Positions 1,100 to 21,531 of a stretch of 64,000 bases of DNA are shown piece by piece. The notes beneath the pieces are model-generated. The model did not search any database, was not told where the DNA came from, and saw only the letters and a program-made list of their open reading frames with translations. The first letter of the stretch is position 1. The number at the start of each line of letters is the position of its first letter. A program made the position numbers and the translations under genes. Where the stretch lies: assembly GCA_965207415.1 (NCBI GenBank), contig CBDBMD010000003.1:3113243-3177242 (forward strand), read 5' to 3'. The stretch is from Dehalococcoidia bacterium (lineage in GTDB: Bacteria > Chloroflexota > Dehalococcoidia > UBA2979).

Positions 1100-1340
1100 G
1101 GTGACAATCGTCGCGCTCGCTACCGCCGTGTTCTTCGGGCCCGTCGCAGCGCTCACCCTCGGCCTCGCCGGAATCGTGATCATCAGCGCGCTGCACGAGG
1201 CCGGGCACCCGCTGCCCGCCGGGCATTCCGGCGCGAGGGGCGAGCAGTTCGCGGACGGGATGCTGCGGGGGCGCTGCGCGCTCACGACGGACCACACGCA
1301 GTACGCGGTGAACGCCGCGCCGGTCGGCGGATCGTGCGAG
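1100..1340 (+). pseudogene. Degenerate N-terminus of a site-2 protease (RseP/M50)
   Basis: TM helix then HEAGH, followed by G-RGEQFA-G...TQYAVNAAPVGG resembling the RseP N-terminus; remainder lost. Confidence 0.6.
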
Positions 1341-2057
1341 CCGGTCCCGATCGGCGCCGTGCCGGCCGTGCCGGGCGCGCACCTCACCGGGCCGTCAGCG
1401 CCGCCACCGATCCGGGCACGAGTCCCGGGGTTGGGATCTCGACGGCCACGCCTCCCCGTCCGCCGGGGACCAGATGGAATCACTCAGAAGGGAGCCGCTA
1501 TCGAGTAGCCGCATCGTCCGGCGGGCGACCGCCACGCAGTCAACTGATCGGTGAACGGAAGGGAATGCCCATGACAAACGCTCGAAAGGAACAGTATCGA
1601 TGGAGGTCCTACGGACACTCGTAGAGCTTCGGGCGCTACCCGCCCCCGCGATTAGCAATAGAGAGACGTCGAGCGCCGCCGGCGCCGCGGAAGCGTACGC
1701 GCCACCTCAGGGTAGGCGCGTCGCGGCAGCGGACAGCGGCGATACGCGAGCCCCTCACCCCGGGGTTCCGACGGCACAGAAGGTCACGGCGAAGGCCCGG
1801 CCTCCGAGCGCGCCACGCCAGCGCTCCCGGAGTGCTGCTGCAGGTGCGGCGCCCGCGGGCACAGCCGTGCCGCACGGCCGCTGCCGCTCGGAAGGCTCCG
1901 CCGGGCGCCCGCGGCGTGCAGCGCGTTTCGCCGGCGGACTGAGCGCGCGCCCCATCACGCACGACCCCCGCAACGGGCCGAGCGCGCTGCCCCGACCGGG
2001 GCAGCGCCCGGCAGCGCTCGCCTGCGCGACCACGTGGACGCCGTAGGGAGGCGGTCG

Positions 2058-3086
2058 ATGCGGACGATCACGCTCTCCGACCACCTTCAGGGCAGGATTG
2101 ATGCCCTGCTCGCTGCGATCGAGCAGGGCCGGGTCCGGGAGCGAGCGCGGTCCTACGCCGCGTACGAGCGGCAGCAGGGCTACGAGGAGGAGAAGCGACG
2201 CTGGGACGAGCGGCAGCAGGGCTACGAGGAGGAGAAGCGACGCTGGGACGAGCGGGTCCAGGCGAGTGAGTCGGTTCGGCGGAGAGCCGCACAGGCCTGG
2301 AGCGACCAGCGGTTCCTGCAGGCGCTGGGCTTGCGCCTGCAACTGCTGTTTCTGCGCCGGGGCCTCCGGCCACGAGAGCTGGAGCCTGTCCCGGCGCCGC
2401 AGCGGCAGCCTTCAGAGCTGGCCGGACTGAAGCCGACGAAGGCCGGGTCGCTCTCACAACTGAGGAAGGAGCGAATCAGGCTGCAGCAGGGCCGGGAGGG
2501 CGAGCAGCGCCTGCTGCGATTCCTCGAGGGGCGACTCGACGATGCGTGGGTGCTGGTCCGGGGATACCGCAACGGGCGGGGCGAGGCGGACTTCGTCCTC
2601 GTGGGTCCACCGGGGGTCTGCGCGATCGAGGTGAAGTACCTGAGCGGCCTGCTCACGGCCGACAGCGACGACTCCTGGCGGCGGCGGAAACACGGCACGT
2701 CCGGGAATCCCCGCAGGGCCGGCAAGCGGGTGCGGGACGCGAGCGGGCGATCGCCCAGCCGGCAGGTTCGCGATGTTGCCGAACTCCTGGAGCGCTTCCT
2801 GCGCGACAGGATGCCCGGGCGGAATCTGCGCGTTCGGACTGCGGTGGTCCTGACGCACGACCGCTCCGAGCTCGGCGAGATCCACGCCGCGGTCGACCTC
2901 GTGGCGACGCTGGCCGGGCTGAGCCCGAACGACCTCGTGCCTGGTCCCGGCGCCGGCCTCGGTCGTGGCGAGGTGGACGAGATCGCGGGGCTGATCGTGC
3001 GCGACCACCGCTTCCACGAGGAGAAGCTCCGGAAGTTGCCGCGGGCAGTCGCGCCCGGCGGATCGTGTGGACAGGAGGCGGCCTGA
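2058..3086 (+). CDS. NERD-domain nuclease-like protein
   Basis: GREGE...EADFVLVGPPGVCAIEVK NERD motifs; RBS GGAGG at 2047. Confidence 0.85.
   Translation: MRTITLSDHLQGRIDALLAAIEQGRVRERARSYAAYERQQGYEEEKRRWDERQQGYEEEKRRWDERVQASESVRRRAAQAWSDQRFLQALGLRLQLLFLRRGLRPRELEPVPAPQRQPSELAGLKPTKAGSLSQLRKERIRLQQGREGEQRLLRFLEGRLDDAWVLVRGYRNGRGEADFVLVGPPGVCAIEVKYLSGLLTADSDDSWRRRKHGTSGNPRRAGKRVRDASGRSPSRQVRDVAELLERFLRDRMPGRNLRVRTAVVLTHDRSELGEIHAAVDLVATLAGLSPNDLVPGPGAGLGRGEVDEIAGLIVRDHRFHEEKLRKLPRAVAPGGSCGQEAA
2164..2254 (+). repeat. Perfect 42-bp in-frame tandem duplication (ERQQGYEEEKRRWD x2)
   Basis: Read directly in the sequence. Confidence 0.9.
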
Positions 3087-7713: not shown

Positions 7714-8016
7714 CAGCGTCTAGGTCCGCCTCGGCGCTGGGATTGAAACGAGGTTGGCAACAAGCTAGCCACGAAGCGAAGGGCTGCCCGTGTACGCGGG
7801 CAGCCCTTCGCTCGTCCTGGCCCATGTTGACGGCTCGCGCCCGCACCAACGGTGCCCCTGTTCCGCGCTCCAGGAGCGCGAATGATCACGTCAGAGGACG
7901 ACGACCGGCTCTCCCCGGGCGCCACAGGCTCGGGGTTGCGCGAGGCGACCACTCCTGGAGCGCCACAGGGTAGCGGACGACCTCGAGGAGTGAGCGCAAC
8001 TCATCACTCCATGCGA
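7714..8016 (+). ncRNA. Structured element A, copy 1 (candidate ncRNA)
   Basis: Multiple stems conserved with 20897-21257, including a compensatory change; no convincing ORF. Confidence 0.55.
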
Positions 8017-8186
8017 TCCGCAGTACGCCGAGCGCCCGGACCAAATCTCCAAGCCTCACAGCGCCGCCAGCTGCCTAGCTGTTCCGGCGTCGAGCACAGC
8101 GGGATCCACTCGTTCACGGAACTGTCCCTGGCCCGCGAGCGTCGCAGCGAGCAGTAGGCCGACGCGGTCACGCTGCCGACGATGCT

Positions 8187-8241
8187 CGGCAACACCGTCC
8201 TGATGCACACGCCAGCATCGCGGCAACAGCTCCGGTGATGC
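8187..8241 (+). promoter_or_regulatory. Motif P copy 2
   Basis: CGGCAAC-N7-TGATGC-N14-CGGCAAC-N8-TGATGC; extended -10 TGgTACCCT follows, hexamer 24 nt after the motif. Confidence 0.7.
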
Positions 8242-8277
8242 GATGCGCGGCGTTGACGCGGCTGGTACCCTTATGGT

Positions 8278-8393
8278 GACCTCTCCACAGGTCCGTTCCT
8301 GCGTATGCGGATGTGGCCCTCGCGCCCCATTTTGTTGTGCGTAGGCTCCGGTGACTCGCGGGGAGGAACCCACATCCTCACCGTGAGGGGGCA
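8278..8393 (+). ncRNA. Pseudoknotted leader element B, copy 1
   Basis: Homologous to 12591-12707; loop GGATGTGG is complementary to downstream CCACATCC. Confidence 0.55.
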
Positions 8394-8491
8394 CGACCGT
8401 CTGTTTCGCAAAGGCCTGCCAAACCTCCTTCTCGTCGCTGTCTCCAGTCCGGTCGCTCAGGTGGTCGCCCGTCGCCGATAGGCACCCAGCC

Positions 8492-10543
8492 GTGTCCAGG
8501 CTCGTGCGGATCGCAGCGAGCGCGCTGGTGCTGGCCATGACGGCCCTGTACGCCCTTGGCTGCGACGGCGGGGAGTCGACGCCGACGGCCACTCCTGGAC
8601 CCGCGGCTGACGTTGTTGCGACAACTGCCACCGAGGCGGCGAGTGACGACCGCGACGGCGCATTGAGGCAGACCGCCACGCCGCAGGCCACCGCCACGTC
8701 CCAGGCGACCGCCACGTCCCAGGCGACCGCCACGCCCCAGGCGACCGCCACGCCCCAGGCGACCGCCACGCCCCAGGCGACCGCCACGCCCCAGGCCACC
8801 GCCACGCCCCAGGCGACCGCCACGCCCCAGGCGACCGCCACGCCGCAGGCGACCGCCACGCCGCAGGCGACCGCCACGCCCCAGGCGACCGCCACGCCCC
8901 AGGCCACCGCCACGCCGCAGGCCACCGCCACGCCGCAGGCGACCGCCTCGCCAACGGCGACCGCCACGCCCCAGGCCACCGCCGCTCAGCCAGCCGGTTA
9001 TCGGACTCTCACCTTCAACTCCGTGAGTGCTGGCACCCTGCAGACGTGTGGTGTCACGACCAATGGGGCGCTTGTCTGCTGGGGCAATGGCCTCGATGGC
9101 CAGCCGTCGGCCGCCGCCGGCTCATTCACTTCCGTTAGCGCGGGGTTGGCCCACAACTGCGGAGTCAGGACCGATGGGTCGGTCACTTGCTGGGGTGATC
9201 ACGGCTCTGGTCGGGCCCGGCCGCCGGCGGGTGCATTCACCTCCGTCAGCGCTGGGTTGAGACACACCTGCGGAGTCAGGACTGACGGGTCGGTAGCCTG
9301 CTGGGGCAACGACGGCTCAGGCGCAGCCTCGCCACCCGATGGTACGTTCACCTCCGTTAGCAGCGGTTCGGGCCACACCTGCGGAGTCAGGACCGACGGG
9401 TCGGTCGCCTGCTGGGGCGACGACAGCTCAGGCCCAGCCTCACCCCCTGATGGCTCCTTTAGCTCCGTCAGTGCCGGGTTGAGCCACACGTGCGGAGTCA
9501 GGACCGATGGGTCGGTCGCCTGCTGGGGCTATGACAACTCGGGCGAAGCCTCGCCACCCGATGGCTCCTTCACATCCGTCAGCGCCGCGTTCAGCCACAC
9601 CTGCGGGGTCAGAACCAACGGCTCGGTGGCCTGCTGGGGCGCCGACCGCTTGGGCAAGGCCTCGCCACCCGATGGCTCCTTCACATCGGTCAGTGCAGGG
9701 TTCAGCCACACCTGCGGGGTCAGCGCCACCGGTTTGGTCACCTGTTGGGGAGACGGCTTCAGCAGCCAAGCGACACCACCCGCGGGAACATTCGCCTCCC
9801 TGAGCGCCGGCGGCTCCCACAGCTGCGCGATCTCCACTGACGGCTCGGTCACCTGCTGGGGCGAGGATCGGGTGGGCCAGGCGACGCCGCCCGCCGGAAC
9901 GTTCGTCTCCGTAAGCGCCGGCGGCTCCCACAGCTGCGGAACCCGTGCTGACGGCTCGGTCGCCTGCTGGGGTAGGGACGGCTTTGGGCAAGCCTCACCA
10001 CCCGCAGGATCGTTCGCCTCTGTCAGCGCGGGGGTTCACCACACTTGCGGCATTAGGTCCGATGGATCGGTTGCCTGCTGGGGCGGAGGAGATGTGGCCC
10101 GCCGAGCCGCCAGACCGCCCGCGGGCACGTTCGCCTCCGTCAGTGCCGGGAGTAGCCACACCTGCGGCATCGGGACCGACGGATCGGCCATTTGCTGGGG
10201 CGACGACGGGGAGGGCCAAGCCTCGCCTCCCGACGGCAGGTTCGCCTCCGTGGTCGCCGGGGGCGGCCACACCTGCGGTATCAGAGCCGACGGCTCGGTT
10301 GCCTGCTGGGGCTTGGACCGTAGCGGACAAGCCTCGCCACCCGCCGGCACATTCGCCTCGCTCACTGCAGGAACAGGGCACACCTGCGGGCTCAGGCACG
10401 ACGGATCCATCGAGTGCTGGGGGCTGAATCTCGACGGCCAGGGCTCCCCGCCCGGCGGCGCTTTCAACTCCGTCAGCGCCGGGCTCTTCCACACCTGCGG
10501 CGTGAGGCCCGATGGCTCCGTTGAGTGCTGGGGCAGGAACTGA
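8492..10543 (+). CDS. RCC1/BLIP-II-like beta-propeller repeat lipoprotein with PQATAT stalk
   Basis: Lipobox ALGC; about 14 repeats of F-SVSAG--HTCGVR-DGSVACWG. Confidence 0.9.
   Translation: MSRLVRIAASALVLAMTALYALGCDGGESTPTATPGPAADVVATTATEAASDDRDGALRQTATPQATATSQATATSQATATPQATATPQATATPQATATPQATATPQATATPQATATPQATATPQATATPQATATPQATATPQATATPQATASPTATATPQATAAQPAGYRTLTFNSVSAGTLQTCGVTTNGALVCWGNGLDGQPSAAAGSFTSVSAGLAHNCGVRTDGSVTCWGDHGSGRARPPAGAFTSVSAGLRHTCGVRTDGSVACWGNDGSGAASPPDGTFTSVSSGSGHTCGVRTDGSVACWGDDSSGPASPPDGSFSSVSAGLSHTCGVRTDGSVACWGYDNSGEASPPDGSFTSVSAAFSHTCGVRTNGSVACWGADRLGKASPPDGSFTSVSAGFSHTCGVSATGLVTCWGDGFSSQATPPAGTFASLSAGGSHSCAISTDGSVTCWGEDRVGQATPPAGTFVSVSAGGSHSCGTRADGSVACWGRDGFGQASPPAGSFASVSAGVHHTCGIRSDGSVACWGGGDVARRAARPPAGTFASVSAGSSHTCGIGTDGSAICWGDDGEGQASPPDGRFASVVAGGGHTCGIRADGSVACWGLDRSGQASPPAGTFASLTAGTGHTCGLRHDGSIECWGLNLDGQGSPPGGAFNSVSAGLFHTCGVRPDGSVECWGRN
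8681..8986 (+). repeat. 18-bp coding tandem repeat (PQATAT), about 17 units
   Basis: CCCCAGGCGACCGCCACG units. Confidence 0.95.
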
Positions 10544-10642
10544 GCGGGCGCTGCGGGGGAGCAGGGATGGGGAGGGAACCGGTCGACGCGTGGGGGGATT
10601 GTCGATCCCGGAGTGCCCCTCCGTGATCGAGGAGTGGAGGAG

Positions 10643-12076
10643 ATGAGCTCGACACCCGCCCGCAAGGTGGCGGTCGTTGCGCTGGTAACGGCGGCGCTGA
10701 TTGCACTCGCGATCGCCGGCGTACGCTGGAGCGCTGACGGCGATCCCGATCGTGTCGCTGCACCGGCCGTTGCGTCACCCGCTCCAACGGCCCCGCCGCC
10801 GCCCACCGCGACGCCGGAGCCCACGCCGACCGCCACGCCGGAGCCCACGCCGACCGCGGCGCCGGAGCCGCCGCCCACCGCGACGCCGGAGCCGACGCCC
10901 ACCGCGACGCCGGAGCCGACGCCCACCGCGACGCCGGAGCCGACGCCCACCGCGACGCCGGAGCCGACGCCCACCGCGACGCCCGAGCCGACGCCCACCG
11001 CGACGCCGGAGCCGACGCCCACCGCGACGCCGGAACCGACGCCCACCGCGACGCCGGAACCGACGCCCACCGCGACGCCGGAACCGACGCCCACCGCGAC
11101 GCCGGTGCCCGTCGATCGGAGCTGGGCGCCGGCGGGTTCGCTCGACGGCGCGACGGACGAGGAGGTCGCCTGGATTCGCGAGCTGTACGAAGCCGACCTC
11201 TGGGAGTGGGACGTGCTTCTCAAGCACTGGTACCCGCTGACCTACGTGGATTCCAATGGGGAAACGCAGGTCTGGGAACCGCCCTTCCCAGGCGCACCGC
11301 GGCTCCTCACGAGCTTCGGTTACCTGGGGGGGTCGGCCAGTCTCGGCTCGGGGTGGGTCACGCTTGTCCCCGGCCTGGAGCTGCCGCCGGCGCTCGTGCG
11401 CTACACGCTGACCAATCCGTTCCCGCCGCGGCCCCCGCGGTACGACCCGAGCGTGGAAGGTTTCTACCCGCCGCTGGAGCCGGGGGTCAACGTGGTCTGG
11501 GTTGCCGGGGCCGACTTCACCGATCCGTCGCAGCGGCCCGAGTGCCCGGTGATCACCAGGATGGAGGAGCTCAACACGGACTGGATGTGGCCCACGGCCG
11601 CGCGCGCGCGCTCTCACTCCATCAGCAGCTACGAGCAGTACAGGGAGTTGATGGACTACACCGGTATCCCGGTTGAATCGGGTAGGGGCAGGGCCTGGTC
11701 GGAGGAGCACAACGCGGCCTTCTACCGCCTCACCGAATCCACGCCATACGGCTGGTACACCTTCGACATCGAGACGATGGAGATGCGCCCGGTGGACACC
11801 GCGCCCGACAGCTGGGACACGCTCAACCTCTGGGGTTCGGAGGTGCCCTACGCTCTCGGGTTCGGGGCTACGTACTACAACCACATCTACGGGGTGACGC
11901 TGCCTCAGGGTATCGAGCCGTGGCCGCCGTTCGACCCGTGGGCCGAGGTGCTTCAGAGGGGCGAGGCCCCTACGGTCCCAGGGCCTTACACGCACGCGCT
12001 CAAATCATTCGTCTTCGAGTCCCCGAATCCTCGTGGAGAGGGCTACGGCGCGTACATGCGAATTACCTGCGAATAG
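10643..12076 (+). CDS. Membrane-anchored/exported protein with PEPTPTAT stalk and unknown aromatic-rich domain
   Basis: RBS GGAGG; N-terminal TM/signal; Pro/Thr linker. Confidence 0.8.
10802..11104 (+). repeat. 24-bp coding tandem repeat (PTATPEPT), about 12 units
   Basis: CCCACCGCGACGCCGGAGCCGACG units. Confidence 0.95.
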
Positions 12077-12590
12077 GCGGCAGCAGGCGCGCCCCGACCT
12101 TGTCCGGGTGCGCCTGCTGCCGGGTTTCGCTACGGATTCGGGATCAGGTACGGTCGGGCGCGGCGGACGGGCAGGCCCTTGGCCGGGTCGCCGTAGCCGA
12201 CGATGCGGGCCCGACGCCTTCATCGCGGAGTGCGTGCGCGGCGGCGTCGCTTCGGAACCGGGGGCGCGAGCCCGTATCGAGTAAGCGTCGTCGATGGGCC
12301 GCACGGTCGTGGGTGACGGCGCGACGGTCAGGTGCCGGGTCACGCTTGCGCCCGGGGCGTCCTTGGGCGACGGCAGCAAGGCCAGCGATCGCTCGAGTGT
12401 CGCCGGGGCAATCGCGTCCGGAACCCTGCTCGGCTCGCGCTCCAACGTCCCCGACGCCATGATCCGCGCCGCGTGAGGGGAGTTGGAACGCCGGTCTGCC
12501 GCCTGCGGATGGACCGTTGGGGTCCCGTGATTCGAGCGCCTTGAGTCCCGCCGCCCGGCGCGACGTTGACGGAACTGCTACTCTCATCAG

Positions 12591-12707
12591 GACCTCTCCA
12601 CAGGTTCGTTCCTATGTATGCGGATGTGGGCCCTCGCGCCCCCTTTCGGTATTCGTAGGATTCGGTGACTTGTGGAGAGGAACCCACATCCTCACCGCGA
12701 GGGGGCA
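12591..12707 (+). ncRNA. Pseudoknotted leader element B, copy 2
   Basis: Starts 7 nt after extended -10 TGcTACTCT (12576-12584); CTCTCCACAGG/CTTGTGGAGAG stem; GGATGTGGG/CCCACATCC pairing. Confidence 0.55.
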
Positions 12708-12836
12708 TCAAGCCGTGTTCTCGGGGCCATCCTCACATCGCGAGCTCGAGCGTCCACGCGTCCGGCAATCCTGCTGCTGCTTGCTGTTGCACACTCCTCG
12801 CCTGGCTCGAGCGCGGAGGGCGTGGGAGGCCCCGTC

Positions 12837-15140
12837 GTGAAGTTAGCTGTCACGAGGTTCGTGAGGAGCACGGCCCCCTCGGCGGCGATCCTGGCCGTTG
12901 CCGCGGCCCTTGTCCTCAGTTGCAGCTCCGAGACACCCGCGACGCCGCCCGCCACGACGGAGGCACCGATACCCTCCGTCACAGCGACCCCGACCCCCTC
13001 TGCGACCCCGGATCGCAGCGCGGTCGCGACGGCGCAGCCGACGCCTACGGCGACTCCGGCGCGCACCGACGGAGGGGTCGCGCAGCCGACAGCTACGCCG
13101 ACCGCCACGGCCACCGCTTCCGGTGACGGCGACGGTCAGGCGCGCGTCGCCGCGCCCGATCGGGTCGCGCTGGAAGCGATCTTCAGCGGTACGGGCGGAG
13201 TGGGTTGGCTGACGAGCACGAACTGGCTCACGGACGCTCCGCTCGGTGACTGGCAGGGCGTCACGACAGATCAGGAAGGCCGAGTTACGGCGCTGGAACT
13301 GCCAGGTAACGGGTTGACGAGATCCATACCCGGGAAGCTCTCGGAACTCACGAGCCTCGCGATACTCGACCTCTCCGGCAACAGCCTGGAGGGACCGATA
13401 CCTCCAGAGATCAGCTCCCTCACGGGCCTCACCGTGCTGAGGCTCGATGGCAACTGGCTGTGGGGGCCGATTCCCGCCGAGCTCGCCAACCTCGAGAACC
13501 TCACGACCCTGTCGTTGTCTTCGAACAATCTCGGGGGCGAGATCCCGCCGGAGCTGGCCAGCCTCTCTCAACTGACCGAGCTGTCGCTCGCGGACAATGA
13601 CCTGCAAGGACCGATTCCAGCCGAACTCAGCAATCTCACGAACCTCACGATTCTGTCACTGTCCGAGAACGGCCTCAGCGGGCGGATCCCGCCTGAGCTG
13701 GGCGGCCTCTCCCGGTTGACCGAGCTGTCCCTCGGCGGGAACAAGTTGAGCGGGGGCATTCCGGCGGAACTCGGGAGTCTCACTTCCCTGACCAGGCTGT
13801 CGTTGTGGGGCAACAACCTGAGCGGGTCGATCCCAGAAGGACTGGGCCGACTGGAGAACCTGACCCACCTGAACGTCGCATACAACGAACTGACCGGGCC
13901 GATTCCACCGGAACTGGGCCAGCTGTCCCGCCTGGAGGTGATGTCTCTTGCGAACAACAACCTGAGCGGGTCCATCCCGGGTGAACTCGCCGAACTCAGG
14001 CAGCTTGCGCGCCTGCTTCTCTGGGGGAACGAGCTTCGAGGGCCGATTCCGGCCGGCATCTGGAACCTCCGGGACCTGACGTATCTCGGTCTGTCACGAA
14101 ACAACCTGAGCGGCGAGATTCCAGAGGCAGCATGCTCGCTGGCGAAGCTGACAACCCTGGGCCTCACAGACAACGAACTCTCCGGTTCGCTCCCGGACTG
14201 CCTCGGCGCGATGGACTCGCTCGAAGACCTTCAACTGCAGGGCAACAGGTTGAGCGGAACGATCCCGGAAGGGCTGTTCGATATCCGCGAGCTCCACGTG
14301 GGCGGGAACGACCTCAGCGGTTGCTTGCCGGATGATCGTCTGGACCGGATCAAAGTCGATACGTTCTTCAGCTCGCTGCCGTTGTGCAGCGGGAATCCCG
14401 CTGCACCGGACTCCGCGCGCGACAGGGACGCCCTGGTTGCACTCTATGAGTCAACCAGCGGTCAGGGCTGGAGGGTTAGCACCAACTGGCTCAGTGACAG
14501 ACCGCTCGGCGAGTGGTACGGGGTCACGACCGATCGCCAGGGCCGAGTTGTTGCGCTGGTGATTACCGGTGAACAGATTCCGGGTACACCTGTCTCTAGC
14601 AACAATCTGAGGGGTGAGCTGCCGGAGGAAATCGGGAACCTCGATAAGCTCAGTGGGCTTGTGCTAATCGGCTTCGGAGATGAAGTGCGCGGGGAAATCC
14701 CGGCGTCAATCGGTGAGCTGGAGGAGTTGCAGGTTCTGGTCCTTCAGAGCCTGGAGCTACGGGGAGAGCTCCCGAATCTCGAGAAGCTCGGGCACCTTCG
14801 GGAGTTGGACCTCAGTTTCAACGGCCTGTCCGGGGAGATCCCCGAGAGCCTCCGGCATCACCGGGGTCTGGAGGACATAAACCTGAGGGGCAACCACCTG
14901 TTCGGTCCAATACCGACGTGGATCGGCGGGCTCGACAGCTTGAGGAAGCTGGACCTCAACGGGAACGGGCTCATAGGTCCGATACCCGAGAGCATCGGCG
15001 ATCTCGGTGAGTTGACCGAGTTGAATCTGGCGGTGAACAGCCTCAGCGGGATGATTCCGGCAGGGCTGATCGGGCTGGTGCCAGAGTTGGAGCTTCTTAA
15101 TCTCGCAGGCAATGACTTTAGCGGGCCGGTACCTGACTAG
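12837..15140 (+). CDS. Leucine-rich-repeat lipoprotein (plant-RLK-like 24-aa LRRs, two capped blocks)
   Basis: Lipobox VLSC; LxxLxLxxNxLsGxIPxEL repeats; two DR-AL...NWL-D-PLG-W-GV caps. Confidence 0.92.
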   Translation: MKLAVTRFVRSTAPSAAILAVAAALVLSCSSETPATPPATTEAPIPSVTATPTPSATPDRSAVATAQPTPTATPARTDGGVAQPTATPTATATASGDGDGQARVAAPDRVALEAIFSGTGGVGWLTSTNWLTDAPLGDWQGVTTDQEGRVTALELPGNGLTRSIPGKLSELTSLAILDLSGNSLEGPIPPEISSLTGLTVLRLDGNWLWGPIPAELANLENLTTLSLSSNNLGGEIPPELASLSQLTELSLADNDLQGPIPAELSNLTNLTILSLSENGLSGRIPPELGGLSRLTELSLGGNKLSGGIPAELGSLTSLTRLSLWGNNLSGSIPEGLGRLENLTHLNVAYNELTGPIPPELGQLSRLEVMSLANNNLSGSIPGELAELRQLARLLLWGNELRGPIPAGIWNLRDLTYLGLSRNNLSGEIPEAACSLAKLTTLGLTDNELSGSLPDCLGAMDSLEDLQLQGNRLSGTIPEGLFDIRELHVGGNDLSGCLPDDRLDRIKVDTFFSSLPLCSGNPAAPDSARDRDALVALYESTSGQGWRVSTNWLSDRPLGEWYGVTTDRQGRVVALVITGEQIPGTPVSSNNLRGELPEEIGNLDKLSGLVLIGFGDEVRGEIPASIGELEELQVLVLQSLELRGELPNLEKLGHLRELDLSFNGLSGEIPESLRHHRGLEDINLRGNHLFGPIPTWIGGLDSLRKLDLNGNGLIGPIPESIGDLGELTELNLAVNSLSGMIPAGLIGLVPELELLNLAGNDFSGPVPD

Positions 15141-18228: not shown

Positions 18229-19497
18229 ATGGCCCGGTTGGAAGCACGGCGCTGGGCGGGCGATGCGAGCGGCCAGACACGCCGCGATCGCCGCCCCTGT
18301 GACTACGAAGTCTATATCCCCGACCCCCTTGTTGATCGGCGGTTCGTGCTCGACGGGGATGTCGCGGCCGACGTCGCGGACGCCGAGGCGGCGCTCGTCC
18401 GGCTCGACGCGGCGGCCGGCGCTCTCGCCGACACTGAGGCACTGGCCCGGCTGCTGCTCCGCGCCGAAGCGGTGGCCTCCTCGCGGATCGAGGGCCTTGA
18501 GGTGGGGGGCCGCCGGCTGCTCCGCGCCCAGGCCGCGCGCCAGCTTGGCGAGGAGCCGCGCGACATCACCGCCGTGGAGGTGCTGGGGAACATCGAGGCG
18601 ATGGCCTGGGCCGTCGAGGCGGTGCCGCCCGGGGCCGCGATCAGCGTGGAGATCGTGCTCGAGGCGCATCGCCGCCTGCTCGCCGGGACGCGCCTCGAGG
18701 AGCACGGCGGTCGCATCCGCACGGTCCAGAACTGGATCGATGGCAGCGACTACAACCCGTGTGCGGCGGCCTTCGTGCCACCGCCGCACGAACTGGTCGG
18801 CGAGCTGCTGTCCGACCTCGCCGCGTTCTGCAACGACGACTCCTTACCTGCGGTCGCGCAGGCCGCCATTGCGCACGCACAGTTCGAGACGATCCACCCG
18901 TTCGTCGACGGGAACGGGCGCACCGGGCGCGCGCTGATCCACCTCGTGCTGAGACGGCGCGGACTGGCGCCGCGCATCCTGCCGCCGGTCTCGCTGATCC
19001 TCGCCACGTGGCCCCGCGACTACGTCGCCGGACTCACCGGGACGCGCTACGACGGCGCGCCCGATTCCGAGGAAGCCCACGCCGGCATCAACCGCTGGAT
19101 CGCGCTCTTTGCGAGCGCATGCCGACGCGCCGCCGAGGACGCCGGGCGCTTCGAGGAGCGGGTGCGAGCGCTGCAGGACTCCTGGCGCGAGCGGCTCGGG
19201 CCCGTGCGCCGTGAATCGGCGGCCGACCTGCTCCTCCGCGCACTGCCCGGCGCGCCCCAGTTGACGGCCACCACGGCATCAGACCTCGTCGGCCGGTCGT
19301 TCCAGGCGACGAGTCAGGCGATCGACCGGCTCGTCGAGGCAGGCGTCCTCAAGCAGGTGACAGTCGGTCGGCGAAACCGTGCGTTCGAGGCACCCGAGCT
19401 CATCGAGGCGTTCACGGCGCTCGAGCGCCAGCTGGCGAGTCCCGAGGGCGACACGCTCGTCTCGGAGCCTGTCAGGCGCGTCCCGCGCGGGCGTTGA
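18229..19497 (+). CDS. Fic family protein with C-terminal HTH
   Basis: HPFVDGNGRTGR; inhibitory SSRIEG motif. Confidence 0.92.
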   Translation: MARLEARRWAGDASGQTRRDRRPCDYEVYIPDPLVDRRFVLDGDVAADVADAEAALVRLDAAAGALADTEALARLLLRAEAVASSRIEGLEVGGRRLLRAQAARQLGEEPRDITAVEVLGNIEAMAWAVEAVPPGAAISVEIVLEAHRRLLAGTRLEEHGGRIRTVQNWIDGSDYNPCAAAFVPPPHELVGELLSDLAAFCNDDSLPAVAQAAIAHAQFETIHPFVDGNGRTGRALIHLVLRRRGLAPRILPPVSLILATWPRDYVAGLTGTRYDGAPDSEEAHAGINRWIALFASACRRAAEDAGRFEERVRALQDSWRERLGPVRRESAADLLLRALPGAPQLTATTASDLVGRSFQATSQAIDRLVEAGVLKQVTVGRRNRAFEAPELIEAFTALERQLASPEGDTLVSEPVRRVPRGR

Positions 19498-19567: not shown

Positions 19568-19978
19568 ATGGCCGCCATCGTCAGCAGGGATCGGGCGCGG
19601 CGAGAGCGCCTCAAGCTCAAGGAGGGCGGCGTGGACGACGAGGCCGCCACCACAATCGGGGATGGGCTCACATCCTTCAGCGAGAAACTGGATGAAGTCG
19701 CGGCGAGCCAGCGAGCCGAGTTCGCGCGCGCGAGGGAGGAGTTCGCGCGCATGCGAGCCGAGTTCGCGCGCGCGAGGGAGGAGTTCGCGCCCGTGCGAGC
19801 CGAGTTCGCGCGCATGCGAGCCGAGTTCGCGCCCATGCGAGCCGAGTTCGCGCCCATGCGAGACGACTTCGCGCCCATGCGAGACGACTTCAGCCGGCTG
19901 CTCAACATCCACACAGGCATCAGGTTGGTAGCCTTGGCGGTGGCCAGCCTCGTGATCGCCGTAGCGCTCTTCGGCTAA
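19568..19978 (+). CDS. DUF1640-like coiled-coil protein with C-terminal TM and 21-bp heptad repeats
   Basis: RAEFARM/RAEFAPM repeats at about 19710-19890; RBS GGAGG. Confidence 0.65.
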   Translation: MAAIVSRDRARRERLKLKEGGVDDEAATTIGDGLTSFSEKLDEVAASQRAEFARAREEFARMRAEFARAREEFAPVRAEFARMRAEFAPMRAEFAPMRDDFAPMRDDFSRLLNIHTGIRLVALAVASLVIAVALFG

Positions 19979-20896: not shown

Positions 20897-21257
20897 GGTT
20901 GGCAATACACCGACCACGAAGCGACGGGCTGCCCGTGTAAGCGGGCAGCCCGTCGCTCGTTCTGGCCGCGCTATTGAAGGCCCGCGCCCGCACCAACGGT
21001 GCCCCTCTTCTGTGCTCCAGGAGAGCGAATGATCACGTCAGAGGAGAACGACCGGCTCTCCCCGGGCACCGCAGGCTCGGGGTTGCGCGCGCCATCGGCT
21101 CGCGTGTCGCTTCGCGTCCTCGCGAGGCGACCGCTCGTGGAGCGCCACAGGGAAGTCCTGGCGAGCGGGATCTGGGTCGACGCGACGAAGCCAGAGCGTG
21201 GGACCTGACCGCAGGACACGACCTCAAGGAGTGAGCGGAACTCATCACTCTATGCGA
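20897..21257 (+). ncRNA. Structured element A, copy 2 (longer form)
   Basis: Homologous to 7752-8016 with two extra segments. Confidence 0.55.
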
Positions 21258-21531
21258 CTCGCCCGCGCCTCTTCCCCAGGTGGCGGCTGCAGTCCGGCTC
21301 GCTCGTTGATAGCCAGAGGCGACCCGCAATCGGGTTGCGATCAAGCTCAGGCGCGCCAGGATGGTGCGAGAGATCAAGGAGGGGTCGCTGTGCGACCCCT
21401 CCGGGGTGAGTTCCGGCGGTTGACATGCATCCGCCGGGGGCTGAGGCGGTAGGGGCGCGGCGGGGAGACCGGCCCGACAGGCGGGTGTGATACATCGGAG
21501 TCCGCCGCAGGCGGCCGCCTCGCCAGCGCCC

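Follow-up and report, generated by a model that had tools for sequence, protein, structure and literature searches.

The 64,000-nucleotide (nt) stretch of DNA analysed here, referred to as the window, comes from the genome of a Dehalococcoidia bacterium (assembly GCA_965207415.1, contig CBDBMD010000003.1, positions 3,113,243 to 3,177,242 of the forward strand). It carries two genes for eukaryote-like lipoproteins, one with RCC1 repeats and one with leucine-rich repeats (LRR), and ahead of each lies a copy of the same 116-nt element. This repeated element belongs to an apparently undescribed family of folded leader RNAs, and it is the subject of this report. The two copies, the promoter-like motifs in front of them and the genes behind them are located in the window as follows, with scores from the covariance models R1 and R3, which are described below.

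8263 to 8271, plus strand: copy 1 extended -10-like motif of the form TGnTAnnnT, TGGTACCCT, read from the sequence; it ends 7 nt before the first base of the leader, with a predicted transcription start near 8278.
8278 to 8393, plus strand: copy 1 leader RNA; model match 8278-8411, 95.1 bits with R3 and 124 bits with R1.
8492 to 10543, plus strand: RCC1-repeat lipoprotein gene; GTG start, signal peptide ending in a lipobox Cys, Pfam RCC1_2 at 6e-94.
12576 to 12584, plus strand: copy 2 extended -10-like motif of the form TGnTAnnnT, TGCTACTCT, read from the sequence; it ends 7 nt before the G at 12591.
12591 to 12707, plus strand: copy 2 leader RNA; model match 12591-12725, 122.4 bits with R3, minimum free energy (MFE) z = -3.9.
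12837 to 15140, plus strand: LRR lipoprotein gene; GTG start, Pfam LRR families, its own Shine-Dalgarno (SD) sequence GGGAGG at 12824-12829 and its own signal peptide.

Both copies are part of a repeat block of about 150 nt (8245-8393 and 12558-12707), for which two repeat families give 81% and 86% identity, with one 1-nt indel. The block is composed of a promoter-like stretch and the 116-nt element, and the likeness stops abruptly past the letters ...GGGGGCA. The elements themselves (8278-8393 and 12591-12707) are about 84% identical, and their flanks are unrelated. An earlier note on this DNA, made from its letters, had placed a 116-nt element at these two positions, each behind an extended -10 ending 7 nt before it and separated by a gap from the gene that follows. 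Alignment and an unfiltered model search bear out the element, TGGTACCCT and TGCTACTCT bear out the motifs, and the gap measures 98 nt to the GTG at 8492 and 129 nt to the GTG at 12837. In the filters-off search of the 64-kb window with R3 the two elements were the only matches (122 and 95 bits), and BLAST of the 3.4-Mb genome returned these two copies only, plus two in a species of the same genus (G012).

Folded singly, copy 2 is more stable than its shuffled versions (z = -3.9, 0 of 200 shuffles as stable) and copy 1 is not clearly so (z = -1.1), while the reverse strands of both copies fold no better than shuffles. A peptide coded within the element was considered and rejected, because the copies differ by loop indels of 1 and 2 nt.

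The family and its distribution

Three covariance models were used to collect relatives. Model R1 was built from four close copies; beyond these it picked up a third, divergent copy in G012 and gave one weak match in another genus. R1 was therefore too narrow, and two broader models were needed: R2, rebuilt with these extra matches, and R3, built from a 19-sequence alignment in which one helix, P1, was the only helix specified. The three models yielded 47 distinct members, 39 in the window's own family and 8 in other families of the class; no two members are closer to each other than the two copies of the window. With R3, 43 matches in 40 loci were reduced to 39 distinct sequences once one reverse-strand match and the duplicates were dropped. 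R3 matches are present in 18 of the 99 genomes of the window's family and in 4 of its 21 genera. They occur in 11 of 18 species in the window's genus and in 4 of 5, 1 of 2 and 1 of 1 species in three other genera. Across the class Dehalococcoidia, 12 of 151 sampled genomes carry an R3 match, including 6 of the 7 in one other family. An order-level search, which covered the same 99 genomes as the family-level search, gave no additional members. The leader is a class-wide family of cis-acting RNAs in Dehalococcoidia and is not specific to the two genes of the window.

Two further scans were made with short cores of the element. The exact 19-mer returned 7 stretches from a genome collection, of which 3 were true (two G012 contigs and one 2.9-kb contig with a Gammaproteobacteria label) and 4 were chance matches. 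A degenerate 19-nt core was run against metagenomes, and of the 88 stretches it returned, 80 were screened and none was a true member by R1 (best 17 bits, E 0.18). Locus L020 is a 2,882-nt contig labelled as a Gammaproteobacteria metagenome-assembled genome (MAG), and its leader (1964-2097, minus strand, 122.7 bits) is nearly identical to those of the window. This leader precedes a frame of 96 codons, whose end runs into the start of a lipoprotein gene, and the contig is probably a mis-binned Dehalococcoidia fragment.

In the genome of the window R3 has six matches: besides the two already described, one lies at C3:1933103-1933239 and three lie on a 20-kb contig, C2. The matches on C2 (20,044 nt) are weak and identical, located at 2115-2252, 10372-10509 and 18629-18766 with a spacing of exactly 8257 nt. 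The contig resembles a concatemer with a repeating unit of 8.26 kb, which may stem from a small circular element or from faulty assembly. On contig G022:C1, the leaders L136 (4021-4171) and L150 (2132598-2132748) are identical, on opposite strands and separated by 2.1 Mb. Behind each of them comes a signal-peptide frame that breaks off after 32 codons, and then a long open reading frame (ORF) of the RCC1-linker type, which restarts downstream. At locus L138 (G111:C1), two differing family members lie back to back, at 1259-1408 (minus strand) and 1501-1649 (plus strand), 92 nt apart and facing divergent genes.

The stretch ahead of the element was compared with known promoter types. The heptamer GTTGACG is present at 8252-8258 and 12565-12571, as the earlier note said, and the role of a -35 box does not hold for it, because only 4 nt separate it from the TG of the extended -10 (7 nt from the TAnnnT hexamer). 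A consensus scan of 7900-13000 found no canonical sigma-70 promoter with 16-18 nt spacing. No sigma-54 promoter was found in the window by a scan of the same interval and a reading of the sequence of both copies. Across the family, TGnTAnnnT occurs within 22 nt upstream of 18 of the 47 members, against 15 of 1880 control windows, and ends 4-8 nt ahead of model position 1. A -35/-10 pair with 16-18 nt spacing precedes 19 of the 47, against 55 of 940 controls. Given this position of the motif across the family, the transcript, whose start is predicted from the motif, most likely has the fold at its very 5' end.

Fold, covariation and the Shine-Dalgarno sequence

The fold is a long two-part hairpin, a clamp formed by the helices P1 and P2, around an apical loop of about 35 nt. 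Two further helices, PK1 and PK2, join this loop to the sequence behind the hairpin. The strands follow in the order PK1-5', PK2-5', the 3' strands of P2 and P1, PK1-3' and PK2-3'. This arrangement is an H-type pseudoknot, with its first two strands in the apical loop of the P1-P2 clamp. PK2 is a GC-rich pairing of about 12 base pairs (bp), in which an anti-SD segment of the loop is paired with the SD sequence and its 5' flank. In the window the strands are found at these positions.

8281 to 8292, plus strand: copy 1 P1 5' strand, pairing with 8354-8365 with two A-C mismatches.
8297 to 8308, plus strand: copy 1 P2 5' strand, pairing with about 8335-8346 (single-sequence fold and family duplex test).
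8309 to 8316, plus strand: copy 1 PK1 5' strand, 8 nt in the apical loop, pairing with 8370-8377 (duplex -15.0 kcal/mol).
8324 to 8335, plus strand: copy 1 PK2 5' strand (anti-SD), pairing with 8381-8392 at 9 of 12 positions (sequence against the family pairing columns).
8381 to 8392, plus strand: copy 1 PK2 3' strand, the SD; no ATG, GTG or TTG from -2 to +15 nt of the block end, and GTC where relatives have GTG.
12594 to 12605, plus strand: copy 2 P1 5' strand, pairing with 12668-12679.
12610 to 12621, plus strand: copy 2 P2 5' strand, pairing with 12649-12660.
12622 to 12630, plus strand: copy 2 PK1 5' strand, 9 nt, pairing with 12683-12691 (duplex -18.7 kcal/mol).
12638 to 12649, plus strand: copy 2 PK2 5' strand (anti-SD), pairing with 12695-12706 at 11 of 12 positions.
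12695 to 12706, plus strand: copy 2 PK2 3' strand, the SD (family pairing columns and start-codon survey).

Compensatory change supports all four helices. P1 is 95.2% paired over 40 distinct rows of the alignment, and both sides have changed in 10 of its 12 pairs; one pair is A-U in 15 rows, U-A in 15, G-C in 5 and C-G in 4. PK2 is 93.3% paired, with both sides changed in 5 of 12 pairs, and one of its pairs is U-A in 22 rows and C-G in 11. When P1 and PK2 were shuffled, 0 of 500 shuffles reached the observed pairing or covariation score, and pairing fell to 41-50% once the partner strand was slid by 1-3 columns. The count for P1 leans toward pairing, because P1 was specified in the model that made the alignment; PK2, PK1 and P2 lay outside that model. 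The helices P2 and PK1 are too variable for column alignment (column-wise pairing of PK1 in the MAFFT alignment is 68%), and therefore the duplex energies of cognate and non-cognate strands were compared. A member's own strands gave -16.7 kcal/mol against -11.1 for mismatched strands in PK1, -18.4 against -10.6 in P2 and -21.0 against -17.5 in PK2, and in each helix 0 of 5000 permutations reached the own-strand mean. The test is conservative in one way, in that strands of near-identical relatives were counted as mismatched.

The earlier note had read the inner stem as kept through substitutions, the outer stem of copy 1 as carrying two mismatches, and the loop as forming a double pseudoknot with the sequence downstream. 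All of this agrees with the analysis. The inner stem changes between G-U and A-U at one pair and between C-G and U-G at the next, the two mismatches are both A-C, and the two pseudoknot pairings, present in both copies and covarying in relatives, are PK1 and the core of PK2. Covariation among wider homologs, the check that the note had proposed, was found for the four helices in the shuffle and cognate-duplex tests. Its pairing of GCCCC with GGGGC is real and is part of the 12-bp anti-SD:SD helix, which the note did not recognise. The small CCTCA/TGAGG hairpin that it described is present in five close copies only and has no covariation.

Pairs of the G-U type are frequent across the family alignment, which, together with the unremarkable folding of the reverse strand, speaks for the plus strand as the one read into RNA. 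The loop that separates the strands of PK1 and PK2 is conserved even though it is unpaired, with a Y-Y-C-R-Y pattern and the C in 37 of 39 rows. Such a loop could well take part in a tertiary contact or serve as a binding site, and it is the main hint at a ligand or factor.

The anti-SD segment changes together with the SD. Where the SD core is GGAGG the loop reads CCUCC, and where it is GGGGG the loop reads CCCCC (alignment columns 79/162); anti-SD sequences vary even between copies within one genome. Behind the SD block, an ATG, GTG or TTG is found from -2 to +15 nt in 32 of the 39 family members. A strongly hydrophobic N-terminal segment, as in a signal peptide, lipobox or membrane anchor, occurs in 22 of these 32 adjacent ORFs, and 9 of the 22 also match a loose, Cys-terminated lipobox pattern. 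With hydropathy scored in the same way, the background is 8.6-11.7% of SD-preceded ORFs in the window's genome, as counted on crude ORF calls made without a gene finder. Among the distant members, a lipoprotein or signal-peptide ORF directly follows the leader in 6 of 8. Pfam scanning of 20 downstream proteins gave one LRR protein, one RCC1 protein and one Trypsin_2 protein (a trypsin-like peptidase), and the remaining 17 had no family. The downstream genes are not random, a condition on which the earlier note had staked its reading, and they encode exported proteins, including RCC1 and LRR proteins in other species. Its view of a pseudoknotted leader common to host-interaction lipoprotein genes was right in kind, with RCC1 and LRR lipoproteins downstream. 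Several secreted proteins encoded by the ORFs downstream of L135, L144, L147, L158 and L129 share an N-terminal module with the recurring motif '...VRI.A.R..DGR.EFAL...', which belongs to no Pfam family.

The window's genes and their remodelled leaders

Both copies in the window are remodelled: other genes for exported proteins seem to have captured a module of promoter, leader and signal peptide. In G012, lipoprotein ORFs of 366 and 406 residues stand immediately after the homologous leaders. The DNA of copy 2 past the SD is about 75% identical, by eye, to the signal-peptide coding region of G012, and the loss of 1 nt shifts its frame. The relic of this frame reads as follows.

12715 to 12840, plus strand: relic reading frame of 41 codons; its GTG lies 8 nt past the SD block, and its TGA at 12838-12840 overlaps the GTG of the LRR gene at 12837.

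Since the stop of the relic frame overlaps the LRR start, control by copy 2 could pass on to the LRR gene through translational coupling. A frameshifted relic like that of copy 2 is also found in the two identical copies of G022. In copy 1 the adjacent start has been lost (GTC in place of GTG), P1 carries its two A-C mismatches and PK2 is paired at 9 of 12 positions; this copy may be decaying or losing function.

Between the two leader-bearing genes lies a third gene (10613-12076), whose product is a proline-rich repeat protein with a membrane anchor; its only domain match, to Cornifin, is below threshold. No leader precedes this gene, and it may share a transcript with the RCC1 gene. Tandem repeats of 18 and 24 nt (8599-9055, 10725-11156 and 12943-13110) encode Thr/Pro/Ala-rich linkers right after the signal peptides of the RCC1 gene, this middle gene and the LRR gene, and in other species, too, proteins encoded behind the leader have linkers of the same style. 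Another repeat, about 270 nt long, is found at 7752-8021 and 20897-21262; its copies are 86-91% identical, with two deletions in the first. It has a perfect GC-rich hairpin at its start and a short ATG frame. Its first copy is situated a short way upstream of leader copy 1; the repeat and the leader are unrelated. At 19669-19920 there is an array of a 21-nt tandem repeat with at least 9 copies.

Possible function and competing explanations

The family was compared with RNAs already described. The earlier note had made its proposal conditional on the absence of a known family, and none was found: Rfam 15 gave 0 matches at the gathering score across the whole window, and no match overlapping the element in 7 member loci at E up to 5. 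Known ribozyme families are absent among the Rfam matches of the window and these 7 loci. Full-text literature searches, which did not extend to the supplementary motif lists of two Breaker-lab surveys, gave no description of such a leader. The rdhA motif, a weak riboswitch candidate of Dehalococcoides located immediately upstream of reductive dehalogenase genes, is the sole candidate RNA in print that was found for the class Dehalococcoidia (PMC11109978, supplementary motifs aside). Both it and the leader are candidate cis-regulatory RNAs of the same class, upstream of exported-protein genes (PMC11109978, with the same limit). Searching 30 rdhA loci with R3 gave 0 matches, the 10 rdhA-bearing and 12 leader-bearing genomes of the 151-genome class sample do not overlap, and the window's genome has no rdhA match (PF13486). 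By this evidence of loci and genomes, as distinct from a comparison with the rdhA motif consensus sequence, the leader is not the rdhA motif.

From what was observed directly, namely the four helices and their covariation, the position of the SD and start codon, the kind of gene downstream and the promoter motif, we infer transcription from that motif, repression of translation and the existence of a trigger. The element would lie at the 5' end of an mRNA as its leader, with transcription starting from a promoter whose -10 box stops about 7 nt short of it. Once the RNA is folded, its ribosome-binding site would be buried in PK2, the GC-rich helix of about 12 bp, and held there by PK1 and the clamp. 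With the SD buried in this way, the leader most likely holds translation off or low, and this would last until PK1 and PK2 open. The opening might be brought about by a small ligand, by a protein or partner RNA, by processing, or by competition while the RNA is being transcribed. On balance we favour, with reasonable though limited confidence, a self-inhibitory translational leader of exported-protein genes whose anti-SD pseudoknot is opened by a trigger. The leader probably controls the timing of surface and host-interaction protein production.

Self-inhibitory leaders that are opened in trans are well known, such as that of Escherichia coli rpoS with DsrA, RprA and ArcZ, and that of Staphylococcus aureus hla with RNAIII. 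In these, the SD is paired with an anti-SD located further upstream in the same mRNA, which has to be displaced before translation, and such a pairing is found here, where PK2 is 93.3% paired and tracks the SD. They differ from the present leader, in which the anti-SD pairing is set inside a double pseudoknot and recurs before dozens of unrelated genes. RNA thermometers (ROSE, fourU) keep the SD in a short, imperfect helix that comes apart at physiological temperature, whereas PK2 is GC-rich, about 12 bp long and at -21.0 kcal/mol, and no Rfam thermometer matches it. By analogy, the leader appears to resemble in function both the rpoS/hla-type leaders and the H-type pseudoknot riboswitches considered below, and it is a member of none of these.

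Several observations weigh against the self-inhibitory reading. The transcription start, and the RNA itself, are predicted from the DNA, and the repression of translation and the opening of the fold are deductions from the model. Related rows of the alignment are not independent, so that the shuffle statistics overstate significance. There is no start codon near the SD in 7 of the 39 members, and 10 of the 32 adjacent ORFs lack a hydrophobic start, some of these being short frames ahead of an exported-protein gene. The genes of the window start 98 and 129 nt downstream with ribosome sites of their own, and burying the SD of the leader may therefore not control them, least of all the gene behind copy 1. 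An alternative hairpin that would free the SD, in which a G-rich strand a little upstream would pair with the first part of the anti-SD, is conceivable for most members, but it has no covariation, and its cognate strands are no better than non-cognate ones (-7.34 against -7.30 kcal/mol, with 2086 of 5000 permutations as good). In known translational riboswitches the helices that switch are far less stable than a GC-rich helix of 12 bp, and with such stability in PK2 a constitutive structure fits as well as a switch.

A true riboswitch would be a special case of the self-inhibitory leader, in which the clamp and the pseudoknot form a pocket for a small molecule or ion and so tune PK2 and the translation of exported proteins. 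The closest parallels are the H-type pseudoknot translational riboswitches (SAM-II, SAM-V, preQ1-II/III, SAM/SAH), which are likewise cis-acting 5' leaders with the SD as the 3' strand of the pseudoknot, an arrangement in which a folded leader and a bound ribosome are mutually exclusive. Their helix order, S1-5', S2-5', S1-3', S2-3' with the SD in the S2 3' strand, is also that of the leader, and both of its corresponding helices covary. The conserved unpaired Y-Y-C-R-Y loop (C in 37 of 39 rows), the presence of the leader ahead of many unrelated genes in many genomes, and the lack of a match to any known family speak in the same direction. However, the leader has no sequence or covariance-model match to any of these riboswitches, its pseudoknot is enclosed by the long P1-P2 clamp, and its SD helix is of about 12 bp where theirs has a few. 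It precedes genes for exported proteins, not those for the biosynthesis or transport of one metabolite. Of the 20 scanned downstream proteins, 17 have no Pfam match and none are transporters or enzymes of one pathway, and such a gene set, mostly of unknown function, points to no ligand. PK2 is very stable by itself (mean duplex -21 kcal/mol), the alternative SD-free hairpin is unsupported, and few unpaired nucleotides are invariant besides the SD and anti-SD. The status of a small-molecule riboswitch is unproven, and we regard it as rather doubtful.

A constitutive 5' structure, in which the clamp and pseudoknot protect long-lived envelope-protein mRNAs from 5'-end-dependent decay and fix a low rate of initiation, is also to be considered. 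Stem-loops at the 5' end are known to stabilise mRNAs such as E. coli ompA, and the leader is similar to stabilisers of this type in being a stable structure at the extreme 5' end of surface-protein mRNAs. Its fold starts within a few bases of the predicted transcription start, its helices are very stable, no alternative state is supported, and the genes downstream encode surface proteins. In ompA-type stabilisers, on the other hand, the SD is not buried and there are no covarying pseudoknots. Two such pseudoknots are unneeded for a stabilising 5' hairpin, and so is an anti-SD that tracks changes in the SD, as in the C-G to U-A exchange at the SD core. Enclosing the SD in 12 bp should, moreover, nearly abolish initiation, which would be odd for abundant proteins. 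This explanation is unlikely in our view.

An explanation at the level of DNA would make the element a miniature mobile element or promoter cassette without RNA function, with the P1 arms as terminal inverted repeats. These arms do form an inverted repeat of 12-16 bp, and near-identical copies stand ahead of different genes in one genome, with two identical copies in G022 and three at the 8257-nt spacing on contig C2. Yet the pairing is kept through G-U pairs, which are mismatched on the other strand, and two of the covarying helices are pseudoknots, not inverted termini. Orientation and start-codon register are fixed in 32 of 39 members, a pattern foreign to miniature inverted-repeat elements. 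Each divergent member has its own compensating stems, which indicates long vertical evolution. The 19-nt core pattern gave no true copy among the 80 metagenome stretches screened of the 88 found, and no target-site duplications (which were not searched for systematically), copies in both orientations relative to genes or copies inside genes were seen. A DNA repeat is thus very improbable.

Highly unlikely as well is an independent small RNA acting in trans: a promoter-like motif directly upstream and a compact fold would suit one, but no terminator follows either copy in the window (the sole terminator-like site in 7900-13000, at 12763-12779, is within chance expectation), and the conserved block closes with an SD, behind which most members have a start codon. 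Of the two options in the earlier note, a riboswitch-like leader or a small RNA, the structured leader on the plus strand stands and the trans-acting RNA falls, the 3' end being the SD of the frame downstream.

With 47 distinct members and four covarying helices, the family is a well-supported structured RNA for a poorly studied and mostly uncultured class. The family goes with a type of protein (exported, lipidated or membrane-anchored) instead of a single pathway, an uncommon trait among leader RNAs. The window illustrates how a module of promoter, leader and signal peptide can be captured by other genes, with a relic upstream frame left behind. As the leader precedes eukaryote-like LRR and RCC1 proteins in host-associated lineages, it offers a handle on how such proteins are switched on. 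A bolder proposal, which we put forward tentatively, is that the leaders could form a new riboswitch-like or factor-responsive RNA class which, as a master gate, governs translation of the proteins that Dehalococcoidia export, among them the eukaryote-like LRR and RCC1 surface proteins of host-associated lineages. If so, the mRNAs would be made but remain silent until one shared signal, such as a metabolite, a second messenger or a host cue, opens them all. Should a trigger exist, its discovery would establish a regulon, or a ligand for riboswitches, that is new.

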